Shown: piece after piece, positions 2,262 through 38,541 of the stretch | Layout of the letters: every line of letters starts with the position of its first letter | Numbering within the stretch: position 1 is the stretch's first letter | DNA from: an uncultured Coprobacillus sp. | Lineage (GTDB): Bacteria > Bacillota_I > Bacilli_A > ML615J-28 > CAG-698 | Direction of reading: 5' to 3' | DNA length: 64,000 nt | Assembly: GCA_964389905.1 (NCBI GenBank) | Contig: CAYMGD010000005.1 | Span: forward strand, 6,842-70,841 | Translations under genes and position numbers: made by a program | The notes under the pieces: generated by a model | Databases searched by the model: none | The model's input: only the letters and a program-made list of their open reading frames with translations | Told to the model about the DNA's origin: nothing

Positions 2262-4136
2262 ATGGGAAAAATTAAAGTTCTTGATGAGCACTTAATAAAT
2301 TTAATCGCTGCTGGAGAAGTAATAGAAAGAATCTCAAGCGTTGTCAAAGAACTTGTGGAGAATAGTATAGATGCTGGAGCAACTAGCATCTCTATTTCAC
2401 TTGTTGATTCAGGTTTAAAAGAGATAACAGTACTTGATAATGGTACAGGAATGGATGAAGTGGAGATGAAAACAGCAATCCTACCTCATGCTACAAGTAA
2501 AATAAATGACGAAAAAGATTTATTTTCTATCCATACTTTAGGATTTCGTGGGGAAGCACTAGCCTCAATTGTCGCAATATCTAATATGAAAATAAAAAGC
2601 TCAACGGGCTCGGGAAAAGGTTTTATGATGGGTTTAAAAGCTGGTGTAATCACTGGTCAAGCATACATTGGTCATCCTCAAGGAACAGAAATACAAGTTC
2701 GTGATTTGTTTTTTAATACTCCTGCAAGATTACAAAATCTTAAGAGCATCCAAGCAGAACTAAGCTATGTTACTGACTTCGTAACCAAGATTGCTCTGGC
2801 AAATCCCCACATAGCTTTTAAACTAACAAATAATGATAATAAAATATTTCAATCTTTTGGTAATGGTAATCGATTAGAAGTTTTAAATGCAATTTATGAC
2901 GTTAATGTTTGTAAAAACATGTTAACAATTGCTAGTAGCAATAATTTATTTAAAGTATATGGCTTAATATCTAATCTTTCAATAACTCGTTCATCACGAA
3001 ATAATATGACAATAATCGTTAATGGTCGTGTTGTTAGAAATAATAATATTACTAATGCCATAATTGAAGCCTATAAAACCATGCTGACAGTTGGTAGATA
3101 TCCTATTTGCGTAATCGAAATATCTGTTGACTACGCTTTAGTTGATGTTAATGTTCATCCAACAAAGGCAGAAGTACGATTTAGTGATGAAGAAAAACTA
3201 CTTACTTTGATAAAAGAAACCATTTCTTCAAAACTGCTACAAAGTAATTTGATTGTTAATAAAGATGTTTCTTATGAAACAAATCCTTTTGATTTAATTA
3301 ATGATGAGGAAATAGAAGAAAACTTAACAATCGAAAATAAAACGGAAGAGAATATTAATCCAATCAATTATTTTGATGGAATATCACAAATTGATGTGTC
3401 AAATGAACAAATATTTGAAGAAAAAGAAATTGCTTTCGAAGAAGTAAGTAAACCTATAGAAAATGAAACAAAACAAGAAGAAAAAGAGCCTAAGTTTGTT
3501 CAATCTACATTTGATTTTTCTAATCAAAAAATAATCGAAGAAAAAGAAATTGATAAAATTACCGAACTTCATTATGTTGGTCAACTTTTTGGAACATATA
3601 TTCTTGCACAAAACGATGAATTTTTTTATATGATAGATCAGCACGCAGCAAATGAAAGAATCAATTATGAGAAAATTGTTAAAGAATTACAAAATGAAAA
3701 AATTGTTAAATATGATTTATTATTACCAATAAAACTAACTTTTACGCAATCTGAATCAATACTCATTGAAGAAAAAAAAGAAACAATTAATTCTTTAGGG
3801 ATAGAGTTTGAAAGTTTTGGTGGAACAAGTTTTATTGTTCGTAGTGTACCATTATGGATTAACCAAACTATAGCTAATGATTATATAGAAGATATTTTTA
3901 TGCAAGTGATAAGAGATAAGAAATCAACAAAAATGGAATTTTTAGATAATTTATCGAAAAGTTTAGCTTGTAAGAGAAGTATAAAAGGGAACGAATTCAT
4001 TGGCAGAAATCAAATAGAATTCCTTCTTGAAGATTTAATCAAATGCTCTAATCCATATACTTGTCCTCATGGTAGACCAATTATAATTAAATATTCAAAG
4101 TATCAAGTTGAAAAATGGTTTAAGAGAGTACAATAA
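2262..4136 (+). CDS. mutL: DNA mismatch repair protein MutL
   Basis: GHKL ATPase motifs ELVENSIDAG, DNGTGM and LGFRGEAL. C-terminal motifs QHAANERI and CPHGRP. Lies downstream of mutS. Confidence 0.95.
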   Translation: MGKIKVLDEHLINLIAAGEVIERISSVVKELVENSIDAGATSISISLVDSGLKEITVLDNGTGMDEVEMKTAILPHATSKINDEKDLFSIHTLGFRGEALASIVAISNMKIKSSTGSGKGFMMGLKAGVITGQAYIGHPQGTEIQVRDLFFNTPARLQNLKSIQAELSYVTDFVTKIALANPHIAFKLTNNDNKIFQSFGNGNRLEVLNAIYDVNVCKNMLTIASSNNLFKVYGLISNLSITRSSRNNMTIIVNGRVVRNNNITNAIIEAYKTMLTVGRYPICVIEISVDYALVDVNVHPTKAEVRFSDEEKLLTLIKETISSKLLQSNLIVNKDVSYETNPFDLINDEEIEENLTIENKTEENINPINYFDGISQIDVSNEQIFEEKEIAFEEVSKPIENETKQEEKEPKFVQSTFDFSNQKIIEEKEIDKITELHYVGQLFGTYILAQNDEFFYMIDQHAANERINYEKIVKELQNEKIVKYDLLLPIKLTFTQSESILIEEKKETINSLGIEFESFGGTSFIVRSVPLWINQTIANDYIEDIFMQVIRDKKSTKMEFLDNLSKSLACKRSIKGNEFIGRNQIEFLLEDLIKCSNPYTCPHGRPIIIKYSKYQVEKWFKRVQ

Positions 4137-5095
4137 TGAATAATATTAACGATACTAAAACTGACAAAGTAAAAAATAACAAAGTAAAAAACAACAAAGT
4201 TGTTTTGATTGTTGGTCCAACAGGAATCGGCAAAACAGAAATATCATTAACGCTTTGTGAACGTTTCGATGGTGAAATAATAAATTGTGATGCTTCCCAA
4301 ATGAAAAAAGAATTAAATATTGGTACAGCTAAAATAGATTTAGCACAAACGAATATAAAACATCATTTGATTGATATAATTGAACCAGAAGAAAAATTTT
4401 CTTGCGCAACATTTCAAAAAGAAGCTCGAAAGCTAATAGAAGAAATTGGAAACAGAAAAAAAATACCATTTATTGTTGGTGGTACTGGTTTATATGCTTC
4501 TGTTGCTATTTATGATTATGAACTTGACGATTCAGAAAAACAAATCATTGATGAAAGTAAATATGAAACATTGTCAAATATAGAACTATACAATATACTT
4601 CAAGAAAAAGATCCTGAAACTGCTGAAAAAATTCATCCTAACAATCGAATTAGAGTTATTCGGGCAATTGAGTGTGCAAATAATGGTTCATTTATAAGTC
4701 AAAAAAAAGGAAAAAAGGATTTGGTCTATGATGCACTAATAATATGTTTATGTACAAGTAGACATATTTTGTATCAAAGAATTAACCAACGTGTTGATAA
4801 AATGATTGAAGATGGATTTGTTGAGGAAGTTAAAGATTTGATGAGAAGAGGATATGATCCTTTTAAGTTTCCTGATATAGGCTATCGAGAAATAGCAACA
4901 TATCTTGTTGAAGAATTTCCTATTGAACAAATTAAAGAAGAAATTCGTAAAGAAACAAGACATTACGCTAAAAGACAAATGACATGGTTTAGAAATCAAA
5001 TGGATTGTGTATTTGTTGATGTTAATTACAATTATCCAGAAGAAACAATTGATGATATATCAAATATAATAAATAAGTTCTTAAGTCAAAAATAA
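4136..5095 (+). CDS. miaA: tRNA dimethylallyltransferase
   Basis: P-loop GPTGIGKTE, GGTGLY, and the mutS-mutL-miaA gene order. Its ATG overlaps the mutL stop by 1 nt. Confidence 0.9.
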   Translation: MNNINDTKTDKVKNNKVKNNKVVLIVGPTGIGKTEISLTLCERFDGEIINCDASQMKKELNIGTAKIDLAQTNIKHHLIDIIEPEEKFSCATFQKEARKLIEEIGNRKKIPFIVGGTGLYASVAIYDYELDDSEKQIIDESKYETLSNIELYNILQEKDPETAEKIHPNNRIRVIRAIECANNGSFISQKKGKKDLVYDALIICLCTSRHILYQRINQRVDKMIEDGFVEEVKDLMRRGYDPFKFPDIGYREIATYLVEEFPIEQIKEEIRKETRHYAKRQMTWFRNQMDCVFVDVNYNYPEETIDDISNIINKFLSQK

Positions 5096-28906: not shown

Positions 28907-29062
28907 ATGAATAATATAAACAAGAAAAGAAATAAACTTTATCAAAAGTTTACGGAAACAGGGAAAATAAGTGATTACTTATTATATGCGAAAGAAAAAA
29001 ATAATGATGTAAGAGGAAGAAGCAATGGAACTCATCGAGGGAATAGTTCTAAATACTCGTAA
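28907..29062 (+). CDS. small YqzL-like protein (not in the supplied ORF track; tentative)
   Basis: 51-codon ORF between era and recO. KLYQKFTETGKISDYLLYAKEK resembles the YqzL motif as I recall it. No strong RBS. Overlaps the recO start by 38 nt. Confidence 0.4.
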   Translation: MNNINKKRNKLYQKFTETGKISDYLLYAKEKNNDVRGRSNGTHRGNSSKYS

Positions 29063-29887: not shown

Positions 29888-30214
29888 ATGAATAATTACC
29901 ATTTTTATTATAATTATATTATTCAACCACTATTATTATTTGTTATACAAATGTTATTATTTAATTATTCAATTATTACAAAAAATATAATCAGCATATT
30001 AATATTATTTTTATTTGATTTATTTATATTAATTGACTATTCAATTTTTGATTATTTATTAAAAATGATATTATATATTATTTACTTCATAATTGTTTTA
30101 ATTTTTAGTAACAATCTATTATTTAATATTTATACAGATTATTTTTCTTTTGTTTTAGTAATATTTATAAATTATACTTTTAATATATTTTATTCTTATA
30201 AAAGAGTTACATGA
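29888..30214 (+). CDS. small hydrophobic membrane protein (I/L/F/Y-rich), hypothetical
   Basis: Strong RBS AAGGAG 7 nt upstream of the ATG. Three predicted TM segments. No recognisable family. Confidence 0.45.
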   Translation: MNNYHFYYNYIIQPLLLFVIQMLLFNYSIITKNIISILILFLFDLFILIDYSIFDYLLKMILYIIYFIIVLIFSNNLLFNIYTDYFSFVLVIFINYTFNIFYSYKRVT

Positions 30215-30259: not shown

Positions 30260-30288
30260 TTGACAAATTGACAAATGAATGTTAAAAT
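30260..30288 (+). promoter_or_regulatory. sigma-A-type promoter of glyQS
   Basis: TTGACA (30260-30265), 17-nt spacer, TAAAAT (30283-30288). Confidence 0.55.
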
Positions 30289-30331: not shown

Positions 30332-31702
30332 ATGGAAAAATCAATGGAAAAGTTTGTTTCGTTTTTGAAAAGTCAAGGATTTGTCTTTCAAGGAAGTGAA
30401 ATATATGGCGGTTTAGCAAACGCTTGGGATTATGGCCCATTAGGAGTTGAACTTTTAAATAATATAAAAAATGCTTGGTGGAAGAAATTTGTTCAAGAGT
30501 CACCATATAATGTAGGAATGGATAGTGCTATTCTTATGAATCCCAATGTATGGGTTGCAAGTGGTCACGTTGGAGGTTTTAGTGATCCTTTAACTGATTG
30601 TAAGAAGTGTGGAGCTCGTCATCGCGCTGATAAATTAATTGAAGATTTCACAAATGGTGAAATAACTGGTGATGGAATGAGCAATGAAGAAATAATGGAA
30701 TTTATTAGCAAAAATAATATTACTTGTCCTAAGTGTGGTGCAAGTGATTTTACACCAATAAGAAAATTTAATCTAATGTTTAAAACTAATCAAGGTGTAA
30801 TTGAAGATGAAAAGAATGCAGTTTATTTAAGACCAGAAACTGCTCAAGGTATTTTTGTTAATTTTAAGAATGTTCAAAGAACAACAAGAAAAAAGATTCC
30901 TTTTGGAATTGGTCAAATTGGCAAGAGTTTTCGTAATGAAATCACTCCTGGAAACTTTATTTTCCGTACTCGTGAATTTGAACAAATGGAATTAGAATTC
31001 TTCTGCAAACCTGGAACAGATTTAGAATGGTTTGATTACTGGAAAAAATATTGCTTAGATTTCTTAAGTTATATAGGTTTAAGAAGTGAATTAATAAGAT
31101 TTAGAGATCATTCACCTGAAGAATTATGTTTCTATTCAAAAGCTACTACAGACATCGAATTTAAGTTTTTCTTTGGCTGGGGTGAACTATGGGGTATAGC
31201 AGATAGAACTGATTATGATTTATCAACTCATATGAAACATTCAGGAGAAAGTCTAGAATATTTTGAAACAGAAACTAATACTAAATATATTCCATATGTT
31301 ATTGAACCATCATTAGGAGCTGGAAGATTATTCTTAGCTCTTCTAACAAGTGCTTATGAAGAAGAAGTTTTACCAAATGGTGAAACTCGTGAAGTGCTTC
31401 ATATTAAGCCTAGTTTAGCGCCTAAGAAAGTTGCTGTTTTGCCTTTGGTTAACAAATTATCAGCTGAGGCATTAAAAGTATATGAAACTCTTAACAAGGA
31501 ATTTGCTTGTGATTACGACACAAGTGGTCAAATTGGAAAGAGATATCGTCGTCAAGATGCTTGTGGAACTCCATTCTGTGTTACATTCGATTATGATTCA
31601 TTAGAAGATAACTGTGTAACGGTTAGAGAAAGAGATTCAATGACACAAGAAAGAGTTAAAATTGACGAATTAGTTGATTATATTACTAAAAAACTAAAAT
31701 AA
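30332..31702 (+). CDS. glyQS: glycine--tRNA ligase (alpha2 type)
   Basis: Class II motifs [21 protein letters not shown] and SLGAGRL. Length 456 aa. Confidence 0.95.
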
Positions 31703-31719
31703 AATAGGAGATATTTTTT

Positions 31720-33501
31720 ATGGATGTTTCACAAAACGATAATTTACATGATTCACTTACCAAAAAAGTTCTTGAAAATTGTGATATAGTTCAAATAATT
31801 AGTGAATACATCACCTTAGAAAAGAAAGGAAATGATTATAAGGGACTTTGTCCATTTCATAATGATTCAAATCCTTCTTTATCTGTATCTCCTCAAAAAA
31901 AAGTGTTTAAATGTTTTAGTTGTAATACTGCAGGCAACGCTATAAACTTTGTACAAAAAATTGAAAATATTTCTTATTTTGATGCTTTGAAAAAAGTTGC
32001 TGAAAAAAGTGGCATAAAACTTGATATTAAAGAAAATCCACAAGAACAAAAAAAGAAAAAATATTACAAAATATTAGATGATGCTACATCTACTTATGAA
32101 TTTTTCTTAAAAAATACGACTGAAGGACAAAAAGCCTTAGAATACTTGCATAAAAGAAATATTACCGATGATATAATAAAAAGATTTAGAATTGGTTTAT
32201 CAAGTCATAATGATAATATTTTGTCTAAAGTATTACTTGAACAAAAAAAATATTTGCCATTAGACTTGAAAGAACTGGGATTAATTGATGATGCTAATAA
32301 AGACCTTTTCCACGGAAGAATAATGTTTCCAATTACCAACTTAAAAGGAAATATTGTTGGTTTTAGTGGACGTATTTATGATCGTGAATCAAATTCTAAA
32401 TATATGAATACGAAAGAAAATGAAATATTCAAGAAAAAAGATATTTTATTTAATTACTTTGATGCTCTAAATGATATTAAACTGAAAAATCATGTTTATA
32501 TCTTTGAAGGTTTTATGGATGTTATTGCCGCATATAGAGCAGGAATCAATAATGCAATAGCAACTATGGGTACTGCTTTAACTGAAAGCCAAATAGATAT
32601 CATCAAAGGACAAACAAATAATATTACAATTTGTTATGATGGAGATAATCCTGGAATAGAAGCAACTAAAAGAGCCATAAATTTATTTGCGAAGAAAGGC
32701 ATTGCTGTCTCAACGATTATCCTTCCTGAAGGATTAGACCCAGATGATTACATTAACAAAAAAGGTAAAGAAGCTTTTTGTGAATTATTAGAAAAACATC
32801 AAGTTAATTATCTTGATTATCTATATGAAATTGCAAAAAGAAAGTTAGATCGCAATAATCCTAATTCAATATTACAATTTCAAAAAGAAATTTATCAAAT
32901 TATTAAAGATTTAAAAAATGAGTCTTTGAAGACATATTTACTTAATAAATTAGAAATTGATTTATCCATTAATAGAAATAAATTAGAAATTGATTTAAAT
33001 AATTATAACAATAGTAATGTTGTTATTGAGCGAATCCGTAATGAGAATAAATCTCATAAGCAAACATTTGAAAAGAAAAATTATGAAGAAGCAGAAAAAG
33101 GGATAGTTTATTTATCATTTTACAACCGTGATGTTTGTCTTAAAGTTCAAAAGAAATTGGGAATTGATGAATTTATAAATTCTATTAATCGTAATATTCT
33201 TTTTGCTTTATATGAATATTATAATTTATCAAATGAAATGAATAAAGATGAATTTCTAAAATCACTAGAGCCTTTAGAATTAGACACTTTAAATACAATA
33301 ATTAACAGTTGCCAATTTTATACAGTAAAGTGTTTAGATGATTTCATAACTTATATGAAAAATGCTAATAACTATAAAACCGATATTTATTTGCGAAAAA
33401 AAATAAAAGATGAAACAAATAGTGAAAAATATCAACAATTCCTTGAAGAATTTGTGAGAAATAAAAAGAATCTAATCAAAGTTAAAAAGAATAAGGAGTG
33501 A
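31720..33501 (+). CDS. dnaG: DNA primase
   Basis: Zinc finger CPFHNDSNPSLSVSPQKKVFKCFSC. TOPRIM motifs EGFMDV and DGDNPG. Confidence 0.95.
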   Translation: MDVSQNDNLHDSLTKKVLENCDIVQIISEYITLEKKGNDYKGLCPFHNDSNPSLSVSPQKKVFKCFSCNTAGNAINFVQKIENISYFDALKKVAEKSGIKLDIKENPQEQKKKKYYKILDDATSTYEFFLKNTTEGQKALEYLHKRNITDDIIKRFRIGLSSHNDNILSKVLLEQKKYLPLDLKELGLIDDANKDLFHGRIMFPITNLKGNIVGFSGRIYDRESNSKYMNTKENEIFKKKDILFNYFDALNDIKLKNHVYIFEGFMDVIAAYRAGINNAIATMGTALTESQIDIIKGQTNNITICYDGDNPGIEATKRAINLFAKKGIAVSTIILPEGLDPDDYINKKGKEAFCELLEKHQVNYLDYLYEIAKRKLDRNNPNSILQFQKEIYQIIKDLKNESLKTYLLNKLEIDLSINRNKLEIDLNNYNNSNVVIERIRNENKSHKQTFEKKNYEEAEKGIVYLSFYNRDVCLKVQKKLGIDEFINSINRNILFALYEYYNLSNEMNKDEFLKSLEPLELDTLNTIINSCQFYTVKCLDDFITYMKNANNYKTDIYLRKKIKDETNSEKYQQFLEEFVRNKKNLIKVKKNKE

Positions 33502-33505
33502 TTTG

Positions 33506-34759
33506 ATGATTAATAATAACAAAGACTTGCAACAACTTTTTGAAGAAGGAAAGAAAAATGGCTTTGTAACTTTAAATAAGTTATTAAAAATTGTTGATGA
33601 GTCAAGTGAAGAATATGATGAATTTCTTGAAACATTAGATAATGAACAAATAGAATTGATTTCTGAAGAAGATGAAATTGCTACCAATTTAGATGATAGC
33701 GATAGTGATTTTGAGGGCTTCTTAGGAAAAATAGAAAACGATCCAGAGTTTGCTGAATTCTCTAATGAAATAGAAAATGAATTAAAAACTAAAGATATAG
33801 AAGATTTAGTTTCATCATCAACTATTATGTCTGCTGATGATCCAGTAAAAATGTATCTAAAAGAAATAGGTCAAATTCCTTTATTATCATCAACTAGAGA
33901 ACTAGAATTATCTCGTTCCATTCAAGAAGGTATATCAGCTGAAGAAATGCTTGCACAAATAAAAACGGGAAACAAAGAAGCTACACCTGAAGAAATTAAA
34001 AGATTAGAAGAAATTGAAACTGATGGTTTAGATGCCCAAGAAATACTTACAAATTCAAATTTGCGTTTAGTAGTAAGTATTGCTAAAAAATTTCTAGGAC
34101 GAGGTTTACCATTTGAAGATTTAATCCAAGAAGGTAATATGGGACTAATGAAAGCAGTAAAGAAATTCGATCCAACTAAAGGCTTTAAGTTTTCAACTTA
34201 TGCAACATGGTGGATTAAACAATCAATTACTCGTTCGATAGCTGACCAGTCACGTACAATTAGAATTCCTGTTCATATGGGAGAACAAATTAATCGTATG
34301 ATTAAAACGCAAAGACGCTTAACACAAGAGTTACAAAGAGAACCTACGGAGCAAGAACTTGCTGAAGCTTTAGGTGAAAAAGTTGAAAAAATTAGAAGAA
34401 TGCAAAAAGCAGCCCTTGAACCAGTTTCAACTGATAAAGCAATAGGTGAGGAAGAGGATTCAACACTACTTGACTTTTTCCCTGATACTGAAAATCTTAA
34501 TCCTTTAGAATATACAATGAATGAAAAATTTAAAGAAGAAATAGATAGTTTTCTTAAAGAATTACTTCCAAGAGAAGAAAAAGTTATCAGATTGCGTTAT
34601 GGTTTAGAAGATGGTCGTTCACACACATTAGAAGAAGTTGGTAAAGAATTTAATGTTACAAGAGAACGCATTAGACAAATTGAAGCTAAAGCAATTAGAA
34701 GATTACGCCATCCTTCACGACAAAGAAGACTGCGAAGTTTAAAAGGTTACACTGAATAA
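33506..34759 (+). CDS. sigA: RNA polymerase sigma-70 family, primary-type (copy 1)
   Basis: Regions 1.2-4.2 are present: [62 protein letters not shown]. dnaG-sigA gene order. Confidence 0.9.
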   Translation: MINNNKDLQQLFEEGKKNGFVTLNKLLKIVDESSEEYDEFLETLDNEQIELISEEDEIATNLDDSDSDFEGFLGKIENDPEFAEFSNEIENELKTKDIEDLVSSSTIMSADDPVKMYLKEIGQIPLLSSTRELELSRSIQEGISAEEMLAQIKTGNKEATPEEIKRLEEIETDGLDAQEILTNSNLRLVVSIAKKFLGRGLPFEDLIQEGNMGLMKAVKKFDPTKGFKFSTYATWWIKQSITRSIADQSRTIRIPVHMGEQINRMIKTQRRLTQELQREPTEQELAEALGEKVEKIRRMQKAALEPVSTDKAIGEEEDSTLLDFFPDTENLNPLEYTMNEKFKEEIDSFLKELLPREEKVIRLRYGLEDGRSHTLEEVGKEFNVTRERIRQIEAKAIRRLRHPSRQRRLRSLKGYTE

Positions 34760-34801
34760 AAATCTGACTTAATACAATAATAATAGTAAGGAGGAATTCA
34801 A

Positions 34802-36055
34802 ATGATTACTGATAACAAAGAATTGATAAAACTTGTTGAAGAAGCAAGACAGAATGGAGTAATCCAACTTGAAAAAGTTTTAAAAATAATCGATGAATCA
34901 AGCAATGAATATGATGAATTACTTGATTTACTTGACGCAGAAGAAATAGAAATTGTCTTTGATTCAGAAATGAACAATGAACTTGAAAGTATCGATGATG
35001 ATTTTGAAGGCTTCTTAGACAAACTAGAAAGCGATCCAGAATTTGCGGAATTTTCTAATGAAATAGAAAACGAATTAAAAACTAAAGACATAGAGGATTT
35101 AGTTTCTTCAACAATGATAATATCGGCTGATGATCCTGTTAAGATGTATCTTAAGGAAATCGGACAGATTCCTTTGTTATCAACAGCAAGAGAATTAGAA
35201 CTAGCTAGAGCAATTCATGAAGGTTTATCTGCTGAAGAAATGTTAAAAATGGCAGATGAAGGTTTGAAAGAAATTGATCCTGAATTAATGGAAAAATATA
35301 AAGTACTAGTTGATGAAGGTCATGATGCTGAAGAGATATTGATTAATTCAAATTTACGTTTAGTAGTAAGTATTGCTAAAAAATTCTTAGGACGTGGAAT
35401 GCATTTAGAAGACTTAATTCAAGAAGGCAATATGGGCTTAATGAAAGCAGTCAAAAAGTTCGATTCCACAAAAGGCTTTAAATTCTCTACATATGCTACT
35501 TGGTGGATAAAACAATCTATTACCAGAGCAATAGCTGACCAAGCACGTACTATAAGAATCCCTGTTCATATGGGAGAACAAATAAATAGAATGATTAGAA
35601 CGCAAAGAAAAATGGCTCAAGAGTTACAAAGAGAACCAACAGATGAAGAATTAGCTGCTGAGTTAGGTGAAAAAATCTCTAAAGTACGAATGATGCAAAA
35701 AGCAGCTTTGGAAACTATCTCAACAGATAAAGCTCGAGGTGAAGATGAAGATACCACATTACTAGATTTCTTCCCCGATAATGATACCTTAAACCCATTA
35801 GAATATACTATGAATCAAAAATTTAAGGAAGAAATGGATAAACTCTTAAGCGAACTTTCCCCAAGAGAAGAAAGAGTTTTGAAACTAAGATATGGTTTAG
35901 AAGATGGTAGAACACATACTCTTGAAGAAGTTGGCAAAGAATTTAATGTTACTAGAGAACGCATCAGACAAATTGAAGCTAAGGCTATTAGGCGCTTACG
36001 TCATCCATCAAAAAGAAATAGAATTAATATAATTAAAGGATATTTAAATAGTTAA
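34802..36055 (+). CDS. RNA polymerase sigma-70 family, primary-type (tandem paralogue, copy 2)
   Basis: Same domain set as copy 1, with identical region 2.4 and 4.2 recognition segments. Has its own RBS AAGGAGG. Confidence 0.9.
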
Positions 36056-36080
36056 ACTTTCCATAACGGAGAGTTTTTTA
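36054..36080 (+). terminator. rho-independent terminator after the second sigma gene
   Basis: AAACTTTCC-loop-GGAGAGTTT followed by a T-run. Confidence 0.6.
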
Positions 36081-36108
36081 TTGATTTTTTTTTTTTTTAG
36101 TTTATAAT
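36081..36108 (+). promoter_or_regulatory. sigma-A-type promoter whose spacer is a T14 homopolymer
   Basis: TTGATT (36081-36086), 16-nt spacer consisting of T12 followed by AGTT, TATAAT (36103-36108). The uninterrupted T-run spans 36085-36098. Confidence 0.5.
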
Positions 36109-36127: not shown

Positions 36128-37243
36128 ATGAAAAAATTATTATTAAATTATTTATTAATAGCGATTTGTCTTCACTTTTTATGTGTTGATTGGAGTGTAA
36201 TTTGTGAAGAAAAATTTTATGGGAATGATGAGATTGTTTCTGCACAATCACTAGGTTTTACTCCATATAATTCAGCAACAACAATGTATAGTTATTTCAA
36301 AAATTTAACAACAAACATTGGTAATAATGAAACTTCTTCATCGTGCGGATATGTTGCATTAGCAATGCTGTTAAATTATTATGATACGTTTTTAAACGAC
36401 AATATTGTTGAAGAGAAGTATGAGGTTGATGCAAACTTTAATGATGATACTGATAAATATTCAGTTAGTTCGCCAGGTACAAATTATGAAGCAAATTATG
36501 AACCAACTGATGATTATGATGTTGCAGGATATATGAATTATTTACGTACAAACTATGTTGATTCATCTTTACATGCAAAACTTGCACTAATTGGTACGAA
36601 TTCGTTAACAAGTAATCCTTCTAACTTAGGAACTTTTAGAGAAACATTTGGTACCACAAAGACAATTATTAACAATACAATTAATAATTACTTTGATCAG
36701 TTACCTACTTCAATTTCTTTTACAATTTCCCAAAAAACTCTTCCGAATAATGCAACTAATAATGACTATGAAGAACTTAATAGTTTTATTATATCGTGCA
36801 TAAATCAAGGGAAACCTGTTTTAGCTGGAATGAATAATGGTTTCAACGGTCACGCCGTTATAATATATGGATATAATAATTCAAAATTTGTTTATCATGA
36901 TGGATATTTAAATAGATCTGAAGTTGCTAGCATGTGGCCAACTTCTTCAACAATATTAGGAACAAATGTTTCTCGTATATCATATGCAATGTCGCTTGAT
37001 TTTAATCTAGAGCATAGCTGCTCATATCATTATTATAATTCGTCGAATGGCAATAGTTATTGTTATTGTGGACAATATATTCACAGTACTCACGTATATA
37101 CTGATTCATATGTTTACTATTCAAATAATTATCATAAAGCATGTTGCCATTGTGGCGAATATAAATTACAGCTTCATAATTATAGAGCAAATATTAATGT
37201 TGGAATAGATTGCCCGTGTGGTGCTGAAAATCCATTTATATAG
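36128..37243 (+). CDS. secreted papain-fold (C39-like) cysteine peptidase with Cys/His-rich C-terminal tail
   Basis: Signal peptide. Candidate nucleophile SSSCGYVALAMLLNYYD and candidate His NGHAVIIYGYN. The tail carries HxxY...CxCG...H repeats. Confidence 0.5.
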   Translation: MKKLLLNYLLIAICLHFLCVDWSVICEEKFYGNDEIVSAQSLGFTPYNSATTMYSYFKNLTTNIGNNETSSSCGYVALAMLLNYYDTFLNDNIVEEKYEVDANFNDDTDKYSVSSPGTNYEANYEPTDDYDVAGYMNYLRTNYVDSSLHAKLALIGTNSLTSNPSNLGTFRETFGTTKTIINNTINNYFDQLPTSISFTISQKTLPNNATNNDYEELNSFIISCINQGKPVLAGMNNGFNGHAVIIYGYNNSKFVYHDGYLNRSEVASMWPTSSTILGTNVSRISYAMSLDFNLEHSCSYHYYNSSNGNSYCYCGQYIHSTHVYTDSYVYYSNNYHKACCHCGEYKLQLHNYRANINVGIDCPCGAENPFI

Positions 37244-37254
37244 GAGGTAGAAAT

Positions 37255-38541
37255 ATGAAAAAAATAATATCTATTTTTATTTTATTAATAACAATATTTT
37301 TGTTTTCTGGATGTTCTGAAGAAACAATAAAAGTATGCTTTGAAACAAATGGTGGTAATGAAATTACTGCTATAGAATTAAAAAATAACAAATTAAATGA
37401 TTTTAGTTTACCAAATAATCCAGTTAAAGATGGCTATACATTTAAAGGTTGGTATTTAGATAGTGATTTTAAAGAAGAATTTAAATCATTAGATGATATG
37501 AATAAAGATGTTACATTATATGCTAAGTGGGAAGAAATAAAGGAGTATACAATTACATTAATTGATGGGGATAACTGTCAATACCTTAAGATTAAAGAAG
37601 GTGAAAAATTAGCAGAACCTAAAGTAACTGAAAGTAAAGAATATGAATTCTTTGGTTGGTATAATGATGAAATAAAATTTGATTTTGATTCTATTATTAC
37701 AAGTGATTTAACGTTAAATGCAAAATGGGGTACCATTTTAACTCCATTTAATGAAAATAAAACAATAGTTGATAAAGATTACATAACTAAATATTCTGAA
37801 GGAAATGTATTAAAAATCAATAAGCTAATTAAAATAATTTATTCATCAGATATTAATTCCTCTAATGTAAAAAAAATATATTTTGAAGGGACAGAAGAAG
37901 ATTTTCGAAATATAGAAATTATTAGTGCATTTAATGATGATATTCAAATTTATATCAATAATGAACCGATTAATTTTTCTATTGTTTCATCAGAATCTAT
38001 AGCCGAGGAAAATGTAAATATAAAAATAATCATTTATTTAAATAATGACTATCAAAATGAAAATACATATGTTTTACCTAAAAATAGTAAAGTAACTTAT
38101 GATTATTTTGATGAAATAATACATAATGCCCCAGTATTTCACAGTTTCAATGATCTAGGAAATACAACATTTGAATTTTATGAAGATGAACAAAAGAACA
38201 AAAAAATAGATTTTAGTTTCTTTAATAATCTAACTGATGATGCAACGATTTATGTATTCTTTGAAGAAGAAGCTGACTTTTTACAAAATATGCAAGGAAT
38301 ATTAAAATCGTATAATGGTGATGAATGCATAATTAATGATTGTGAGATAACTATTTTAGGTAAAACATATTCTTTAGAAGCTAATTCTTGGGGAAAAAAT
38401 GTAATTACTTATCAATATTATGATGAATTTATTTTTTTAACTTTAGGGGTATATTTTGTTAATCAAAAAAATTGTTTAAGCATAATGATATTTGATAATA
38501 AAAATGAAGAAATACAATTTAATTATTTCTTTTTAGAATAA
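37255..38541 (+). CDS. lipoprotein with Listeria-Bacteroides (InlB B-repeat-like) repeats
   Basis: Lipobox LFSGC. Repeats DGYTFKGWYLDSDFKEEF and EYEFFGWYNDE. Confidence 0.6.
   Translation: MKKIISIFILLITIFLFSGCSEETIKVCFETNGGNEITAIELKNNKLNDFSLPNNPVKDGYTFKGWYLDSDFKEEFKSLDDMNKDVTLYAKWEEIKEYTITLIDGDNCQYLKIKEGEKLAEPKVTESKEYEFFGWYNDEIKFDFDSIITSDLTLNAKWGTILTPFNENKTIVDKDYITKYSEGNVLKINKLIKIIYSSDINSSNVKKIYFEGTEEDFRNIEIISAFNDDIQIYINNEPINFSIVSSESIAEENVNIKIIIYLNNDYQNENTYVLPKNSKVTYDYFDEIIHNAPVFHSFNDLGNTTFEFYEDEQKNKKIDFSFFNNLTDDATIYVFFEEEADFLQNMQGILKSYNGDECIINDCEITILGKTYSLEANSWGKNVITYQYYDEFIFLTLGVYFVNQKNCLSIMIFDNKNEEIQFNYFFLE

Follow-up and report, generated by a model that had tools for sequence, protein, structure and literature searches.

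Tandem primary-type sigma factor genes behind dnaG in an uncultured Coprobacillus: a probable single duplication with a faster-evolving second copy

Most bacteria have a single primary sigma factor. Group 2 sigma-70 factors are derived from the primary sigma factor and recognise the same or nearly the same promoters, and they evolve more quickly and are dispensable in some lineages. Examples are the actinobacterial SigB found beside SigA, HrdA/C/D of Streptomyces, the cyanobacterial SigB-E, and RpoS. Such factors usually have no recognisable region 1.1, are anciently diverged, and are under regulation of their own. Here, we describe two primary-type sigma factor genes, sigA1 and sigA2, which lie in tandem directly after the primase gene dnaG in a stretch of DNA from an uncultured Coprobacillus sp. 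(contig CAYMGD010000005.1; the whole stretch of 64,000 nucleotides that was analyzed is called the window). By analogy, the closest precedent for this pair is SigA1 and SigA2 of Clostridioides difficile, where SigA1 (CD1455), encoded after dnaG, is the main vegetative sigma factor and SigA2 (CD1498) is primary-like (PMC7438776; bioRxiv 10.1101/2021.06.06.447298). A literature search for duplicated housekeeping sigma paralogues gave nothing useful.

Judged from its sequence, sigA1 is the slowly evolving housekeeping sigma factor, and sigA2 is probably a primary-like second sigma factor that shares its promoter recognition but has changed in its initiation or regulatory behaviour. The pair itself comprises the following features.

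33506 to 34759, forward strand: sigA1, 417 aa from its ATG; an in-frame TTG at 33503 gives 418 aa.
34760 to 34801, forward strand: spacer between sigA1 and sigA2, 42 nt, with the ribosome binding site of sigA2 inside; no terminator and no convincing promoter.
34802 to 36055, forward strand: sigA2, 417 aa, the more quickly evolving primary-like paralogue, with unchanged -10 and -35 reading residues.
36054 to 36083, forward strand: intrinsic terminator with a 9-bp stem, a 5-nt loop and a T-run, starting at the sigA2 stop codon.

A preliminary description of this DNA, made from the letters alone, held that these are two intact primary-type sigma genes in tandem, and the open reading frames, RpoD models and Pfam domains bear this out. 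RpoD models are the best match for both proteins. Against the NCBIfam equivalog domain TIGR02393 (RpoD_Cterm), which has a curated cut-off of 354 bits, sigA1 scores 361.9 bits and sigA2 352.9 bits, i.e., 1.1 bits under the cut-off. The Pfam families for regions 1.2, 2, 3 and 4 (PF00140, PF04542, PF04539 and PF04545) exceed their gathering thresholds in both copies. Regions 1.1 to 4.2 had been assigned to both proteins, which holds from region 1.2 onwards, but the Pfam family for region 1.1 (PF03979, cut-off 22.5) matches only sigA1 (27.6-29.5 bits) and gave no match in the sigA2 N-terminus, even at E=10. The sigA2 N-terminus aligns to that of sigA1 ungapped at 48% identity, and the first 111 residues carry a net charge of -27 in sigA2 and -25 in sigA1. 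An AlphaFold2 model predicts that sigA2 is folded (mean predicted local distance difference test score, pLDDT, 75.6), with residues 1-52 forming a predicted folded domain (pLDDT 67-82) that is followed by a disordered acidic linker. Scores of 338 and 331 bits for the two copies against the MZA anti-phage sigma factor MzaA (NF041931, cut-off 800 bits) amount to generic sigma-70 similarity.

At the protein level, the copies share 73% identity over 415 aa with a single one-residue gap, and the two genes are 74% identical at the nucleotide level. By region, the identity between the copies is as follows.

Region 1.1: 48%
Linker motif: 84%
Region 1.2: 84%
Insert between regions 1.2 and 2.1: 39%
Region 2: 90%
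Region 3.0-3.1: 76%
Region 3.2: 80%
Region 4: 85%
C-terminal tail: 31%

The differences had first been placed in region 1.1, the insert and the tail; this is where identity is lowest, but region 3.0-3.1 diverges as well. The linker motif between regions 1.1 and 1.2 (33740-33817 and 35033-35110) is better conserved (84-91%) than region 1.1 (48-52%), and is kept family-wide. The residues that read the -10, extended -10 and -35 elements (YATWW..Q..TR; region 3.0 H..E; RERIRQ) are the same in both copies and in single-copy relatives. This agrees with the earlier statement that the promoter-recognition segments are identical or nearly so, and both segments quoted in support of it are identical between the copies. 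Within sigA2 of the window, region 2.2 (core-binding), the melting/-10 residues, the region 3.0 H/E and the -35 helix TRERIRQIE are unchanged, while region 1.1, the insert between regions 1.2 and 2.1, parts of region 3.1, the finger of region 3.2 and the tail are altered.

Both sigma proteins are under purifying selection, as the pair has a dN of 0.205, a saturated dS of 1.07 and a dN/dS of 0.19 (Nei-Gojobori). A three-point estimate made by hand gives an omega of ~0.3 on the A2 branch and ~0.1 on the window A1 branch, values which are approximate because dS is saturated. The tree branches of the window copies measure 0.14-0.15 for sigA1 and 0.44-0.58 for sigA2. Compared with A1, A2 branches are thus 3-4 times longer in the window pair, and they are more than 10 times longer in the related genome G003, whose A1 is 82% identical to the sigA1 of the window.

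The tandem layout is not confined to the window. RpoD was matched in 58 of 61 relatives and matched twice in 12 of the 61, and in a sample of the class at least two RpoD_Cterm matches (E<=1e-80) were found in 21 of 250 genomes (~8%) and in 7 of the 29 genomes of the order (~24%). The arrangement is uncommon yet recurrent in small-genome gut bacteria. A locus search among genome contigs gave only distant relatives (~50% identity), and the genus was reached by genome and protein searches. At least three other species of the genus (G003, L152 and L158) have the order dnaG-A1-A2-terminator. G003 reads dnaG-A1 (417 aa)-A2 (397 aa)-pepC, and its type of A2 belongs to a 90%-identity cluster of 38 member sequences. 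In L152 the copies are 419 and 399 aa long, and in L158 an A1 of 415 aa is followed by an A2 of 367 aa that is degenerate and has neither region 1.1 nor region 1.2. This last gene (3825-4928) has an Asn-rich low-complexity N-terminus, and its DQAR motif is altered to GNMAS; from its sequence, it appears to represent an advanced divergence stage of the tandem copy. Two other genomes of the genus (G004 and G006) have one copy, and L154 and L156 are likewise single-copy. A further A2-type gene, P0122 (L153 4001-5191), is 81% identical to the G003 A2 and lies away from dnaG among AAA_14/DUF4143, HTH_3/DUF3990 and WYL genes. P0122 is degenerate, with a -35 helix of TRETIRQTE and RIPVHM changed to KIPFNI, and seems to be a relocated copy that is decaying or repurposed.

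Other duplications exist in the order. G005, of the same genus, carries a single copy behind dnaG and, in addition, a full-length gene located between recO and glyQS. This extra RpoD-like gene (L117 3464-4711) is 47% identical to sigA1 and has a heavily altered finger, and a similar upstream extra gene is present in G042 (L120). In the other family of the order, G040 has a tandem pair, and a second copy is found 2-5 kb away in each of G038 and G042. Separately, a divergent RpoD-like clade of ~370-400 aa with the motif FSTYASNWIRK (L124-L130; genera g9, g12 and g14; G023) coexists with a canonical sigA in three genera and is the only RpoD-type match in the 1.0-Mb genome G023.

The distribution within the genus suggests that the pair is older than the window species, and this is where a recent duplication, as proposed in the preliminary description, does not fit. 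A dS of ~1.07 is saturated, the pair is common to at least three other species with A2-specific residues shared across species, and the patterns of residue sharing among A1 and among A2 copies mirror one another. An assembly artefact can be rejected: the copies diverge by 26% at the DNA level, so an assembler could neither create nor collapse the pair, the longest identical run is 29 nt, and the same layout was independently assembled in other species.

In the tree, A1 and A2 of the window, G003 and L152 form one clade together with L154 and P0122 (support 99/94), and the A2 of G003, P0122 and the A2 of L152 form a clade inside it (support 86/96). Five states are found in all A2 and in no A1 (A136, A249, R313, D316 and T319 in alignment numbering), at sites that are otherwise near-invariant. 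Single-copy relatives have S, A, V (14/15) or I, E and S at these sites. Four of the five A2 states are derived, and the fifth (A249, in DQAR) is an ancestral state kept by A2. DQAR is the near-universal state. The unusual DQSR (window 34238-34279 and its orthologues) is seen in all A1-type genes and in the nearest single-copy sigA genes of the sub-genus; DQAR is present in single-copy relatives further away, among them the congeners G004 and G005, and A2 copies keep the canonical Ala. The derived states lie in two short segments.

35192 to 35212, forward strand: region 1.2 of sigA2, ELELARA, compared with ELELSRS in sigA1 (33899-33919); Ser-to-Ala change at site 136.
35726 to 35758, forward strand: region 3.2, the 'sigma finger', of sigA2; the sigA1 counterpart is 34433-34465 (DKAIGEEEDST).

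In the finger, R312, D315 and T318 of sigA2 correspond to I313, E316 and S319 of sigA1. R, D and T/S are common to the A2 copies of four lineages, and every A1 has I, E and S. The number of residues shared exclusively by two genomes was counted for each copy.

G003 and L152: 23 in A1, 17 in A2
Window and G003: 7 in A1, 5 in A2
Window and L152: 3 in A1, 9 in A2

The matching order of species for A1 and A2 is what one duplication before speciation predicts. We consider it probable, on the strength of these residue and layout comparisons, that there was a single ancestral duplication, that the second copy was later lost, moved or degraded in some lineages, and that gene conversion acted to a limited extent in the window genome. 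The duplication would then have occurred once, in the ancestor of a sub-clade of this genus of uncultured low-GC gut Bacilli, and selection would have retained the pair in several descendant species.

The alternative is that the window sigA2 was copied independently from the window sigA1 after the split from G003 and L152, and that the residues it shares with other A2 copies are convergent. Maximum likelihood trees place the window A2 with the window A1 (73/52 to 81/91) instead of grouping it with the remaining A2 copies, dS is lower in the window pair (1.07) than in any other comparison (1.35-1.70), and the window A2 is about equally near to the window A1 (72.6%) and the G003 A1 (72.1%). The repeated origin of sigA duplications elsewhere in the order (G040, G038, G042 and G005) also speaks for it. 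However, such a younger duplication needs five near-invariant sites to have changed in parallel or reverted (S136A, S249A, I313R, E316D and S319T), and the position of the gene, the operon layout and the mirrored sharing patterns of A1 and A2 all match those of the other species. Approximately unbiased (AU) tests do not reject a single A2 clade (p 0.19-0.33) and the 'cross' quartet topology is rejected (p 0.0003), while site-wise likelihoods switch along the gene between the two surviving topologies. An independent younger origin is therefore rather unlikely in our judgement; if it were true, the convergent finger changes would imply adaptation.

Under a single ancestral duplication, occasional gene conversion would keep the window pair more alike than the pairs of its sister species. 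The copies of the window share nine residues exclusively with each other, compared with 0-5 (mean ~4) for A1/A2 pairs taken from different genomes, and these nine residues together with the lowest dS point to modest homogenisation of the pair in the window genome. The preliminary description had also raised gene conversion, citing a 78-nt stretch of high identity between the genes. Its count of seven mismatches is right, but the coordinates given for the second copy were 1 nt out of register.

33739 to 33816, forward strand: 78-nt high-identity stretch, copy 1, encoding most of the conserved linker motif.
35032 to 35109, forward strand: 78-nt high-identity stretch, copy 2, in the corrected register, with seven mismatches to copy 1.

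Third-position identity in this stretch is 0.73-0.76 against a background of ~0.55, an excess which is not significant given the many windows examined. As synonymous identity is only mildly raised, we reject the stretch as a recent conversion tract, and the support for conversion that stands comes from the exclusive residues and the dS. Identical runs of 29 nt and 23 nt are about what is expected for saturated AT-biased codons over ~300 conserved codons. Two chimeric proteins from Logan contigs of a G003-like species (P0022 and P0023, with an A1 N-terminus and an A2 C-terminus) were rejected as evidence of recombination: their junction is the sole 32-nt identical run of the G003 A1 and A2, so they are probably assembly chimeras at k=31.

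The DNA upstream of the pair has the following features.

At 29025: recO, upstream of glyQS.
30260 to 30288, forward strand: promoter candidate ahead of glyQS, TTGACA-17-TAAAAT with a TG, 11/12 consensus positions; a consensus match only.
30332 to 31702, forward strand: glyQS (glycyl-tRNA synthetase), an open reading frame that opens the unit, 84-90% identical to its syntenic counterparts in relatives.
31720 to 33501, forward strand: dnaG (primase), an open reading frame whose final codons hold the ribosome binding site of sigA1.

The candidate at 30260-30288 is the top promoter-like site in a 10-kb scan and lies 44 nt 5' of the glyQS start, and it is likely that it marks the start of a glyQS-dnaG-sigA1-sigA2 transcription unit. 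As it is only ~44 nt from the start codon, a T-box leader would not fit. The L152 orthologue of glyQS carries the Pfam domains tRNA-synt_2b/HGTP_anticodon. Between recO and glyQS, the window also has a highly hydrophobic 108-aa open reading frame (29888-30214), and L152 has a gene call of 107 aa at the same position.

The junction sequence between dnaG and sigA1, AAGGAGTGATTnGATG, is kept in three species. As stated in the preliminary description, each copy has a strong ribosome binding site of its own (AAGGAG at 33493, 7 nt upstream of the sigA1 ATG; AAGGAGG at 34789-34795, 6 nt upstream of the sigA2 ATG), and no terminator is present in the 42-nt gap. The terminator behind sigA2, whose hairpin and T-run span 36054-36076, has a folding energy of -9.5 kcal/mol (RNAfold). 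A scan across the dnaG, sigA1 and sigA2 junctions gave no terminator-like sites, and scans of the spacer region gave no sigma-70-type or SigH-type internal promoter before sigA2. An AAAGG...GAAT pair at the 3' end of sigA1 was rejected as a sigA2 promoter since its spacing is far too tight. Short terminator-free spacers with a ribosome binding site are also found in G003 (29 nt), L152 (56 nt) and L158 (47 nt), where hairpin terminators equivalent to that of the window follow A2; L154 and L156, with one copy each, have the terminator directly after their lone sigA. From this conserved organization we infer that sigA1 and sigA2 are co-transcribed in one glyQS-dnaG-sigA1-sigA2 message. Just past the sigA2 terminator, a 14-T run fills the spacer of a TTGATT-16-TATAAT promoter (36081-36108), which precedes two secreted/lipoprotein genes (36128-37243 and 37255-38541). 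Neither gene is found at the corresponding position in G003, L152, L154 or L156.

This organization bears on whether the copies divide their tasks between growth phases or between growth and sporulation. In C. difficile, SigA1 works during exponential growth and SigA2 during stationary phase or the onset of sporulation, and its sigA2 is listed as a stationary-phase factor with a SigH promoter (PMC7438776). In the window genome, Spo0A is matched at 307.7 bits (cut-off 200), the genes for SigG and SigE lie side by side, and SigK and a SigF-like factor are also encoded, so that a sporulation-linked role of sigA2 is possible in principle. However, the absence of any sigma-70- or SigH-type promoter-like site ahead of A2, within one shared unit, speaks against a sigA2 transcribed under its own control as in C. 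difficile, and with a 42-nt spacer any differential control would have to be post-transcriptional. No SigH orthologue scored above the cut-off either (best 37.7 bits against 294.8); the candidate C33 was rejected as SigH and looks like a sigma-like helix-turn-helix protein instead. Since the duplication took place within the genus, the window gene is moreover not orthologous to sigA2 of C. difficile. We regard a split of this kind as very unlikely.

The faster evolution of sigA2 could also mean that it is a redundant spare drifting towards loss, with no distinct function and kept by dosage or by chance. A2 evolves more quickly wherever it is found, it is missing from L154, the -35 helix and RIPVHM motif of P0122 are degenerate, the A2 of L158 has no regions 1.1 and 1.2, and the window A2 itself falls slightly below the RpoD_Cterm cut-off. 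Against this, a dN/dS of 0.19 has been maintained over a saturated dS, intact reading frames are seen in the window, G003 (with its 38-member cluster) and L152, and all DNA-contact and core-binding residues of the window A2 are unchanged. The substitutions that define A2 are themselves kept across species. We find a functionless spare unlikely.

In Escherichia coli, the finger residues D514, D516, S517 and F522 touch the template strand just upstream of the active centre, and finger mutations raise the Km for the initiating NTP and alter abortive synthesis, escape and pausing (PMC3985618). The finger also governs how stable rRNA promoter complexes are (PMC6265461). In a motif alignment that is consistent with the alignment offsets, R312, D315 and T318 of sigA2 map to E. 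coli I511, D514 and S517. Both sigma factors would associate with one and the same core polymerase and recognise the same promoters, and the A2 holoenzyme would differ after recognition, in its binding of the initiating nucleotide, in abortive initiation, in promoter escape or in the stability of the open complex. A2 might also differ in its response to partner proteins of region 1.1 or of the non-conserved insert. Under this model, the main sigma factor of the cell would exist as two isoforms that differ in kinetics or regulation. In its most specific form, sigA2 would be an adaptive 'kinetic isoform' in which the Arg/Asp/Thr finger and the region 1.2 change alter initiating-nucleotide sensing, abortive cycling or complex stability at the same promoters, with co-translation fixing the isoform ratio; stated in such detail, we hold this to be quite unlikely. 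If the window A2 had arisen independently, the same finger changes would have evolved twice; if so, recurrent sigA duplication in gut Firmicutes might be a general way to tune initiation kinetics, or to resist sigma-targeting factors, with promoter specificity unchanged.

Resistance to such factors is the core of another explanation, in which sigA2 is a decoy or 'hijack-proof' sigma factor that lets host transcription continue when a phage or anti-sigma protein inactivates sigA1. The copies do differ where they contact proteins (region 1.1, the tail, and the insert that separates regions 1.2 and 2.1) and not in DNA-reading residues, and another genome has an A2-type copy with AAA_14/DUF4143 and WYL genes around it. 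Nevertheless, the known phage proteins that bind sigma factors usually target region 4, which is nearly identical in the pair, so an inhibitor directed at region 4 could not distinguish the copies, and there are no defence genes beside the locus. This explanation is highly improbable.

Several observations weigh against a primary-like second sigma factor that was retained from one ancestral duplication and initiates differently from sigA1. Besides the maximum likelihood grouping of the window copies described above, the loss of A2 in L154, its movement and degradation in P0122 and its strong degeneration in L158 suggest that it is dispensable in some lineages. For the window A1 and likewise for the window A2, the protein collection contains just one contig. 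Furthermore, the mapping of residues to E. coli rests on a motif alignment and alignment offsets, and single alanine changes in the E. coli finger had little effect (PMC3985618); such mild effects mean that the proposed kinetic difference may be small.

Compared with the known systems, the pair is an example of an already known kind of arrangement and not a new kind of system. It offers a clean early-stage case, with an A2 whose promoter-reading residues are unchanged, an apparently shared transcript, and few conserved changes in the finger and region 1.2, and thus a natural experiment on the early divergence of a second primary-like sigma factor and on the effects of finger substitutions. Like C. 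difficile, the window genome has two group-1-type SigA proteins in one spore-former-type Firmicute, with one copy after dnaG. However, while the C. difficile copies are ~40 genes apart and its sigA2 has its own SigH-dependent promoter, the window copies are adjacent and appear to be co-transcribed, and they stem from an independent duplication within the genus, i.e., the genes are not orthologous. With group 2 sigma factors, sigA2 has in common that it is a paralogue of the primary sigma factor which keeps the same promoter-reading residues and lies beside a more conserved copy, but it is only 27% diverged from A1, has a full-length acidic N-terminus and probably shares a transcript with it. 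The extra copies in G040, G038, G042 and G005 are also at the dnaG-sigA-trmK locus, have the -35 helix TRER(I/V)RQ(I/L)E and include a faster second copy; by the tree, however, these duplications are independent, and none of them has the finger Arg of the A2 clade.

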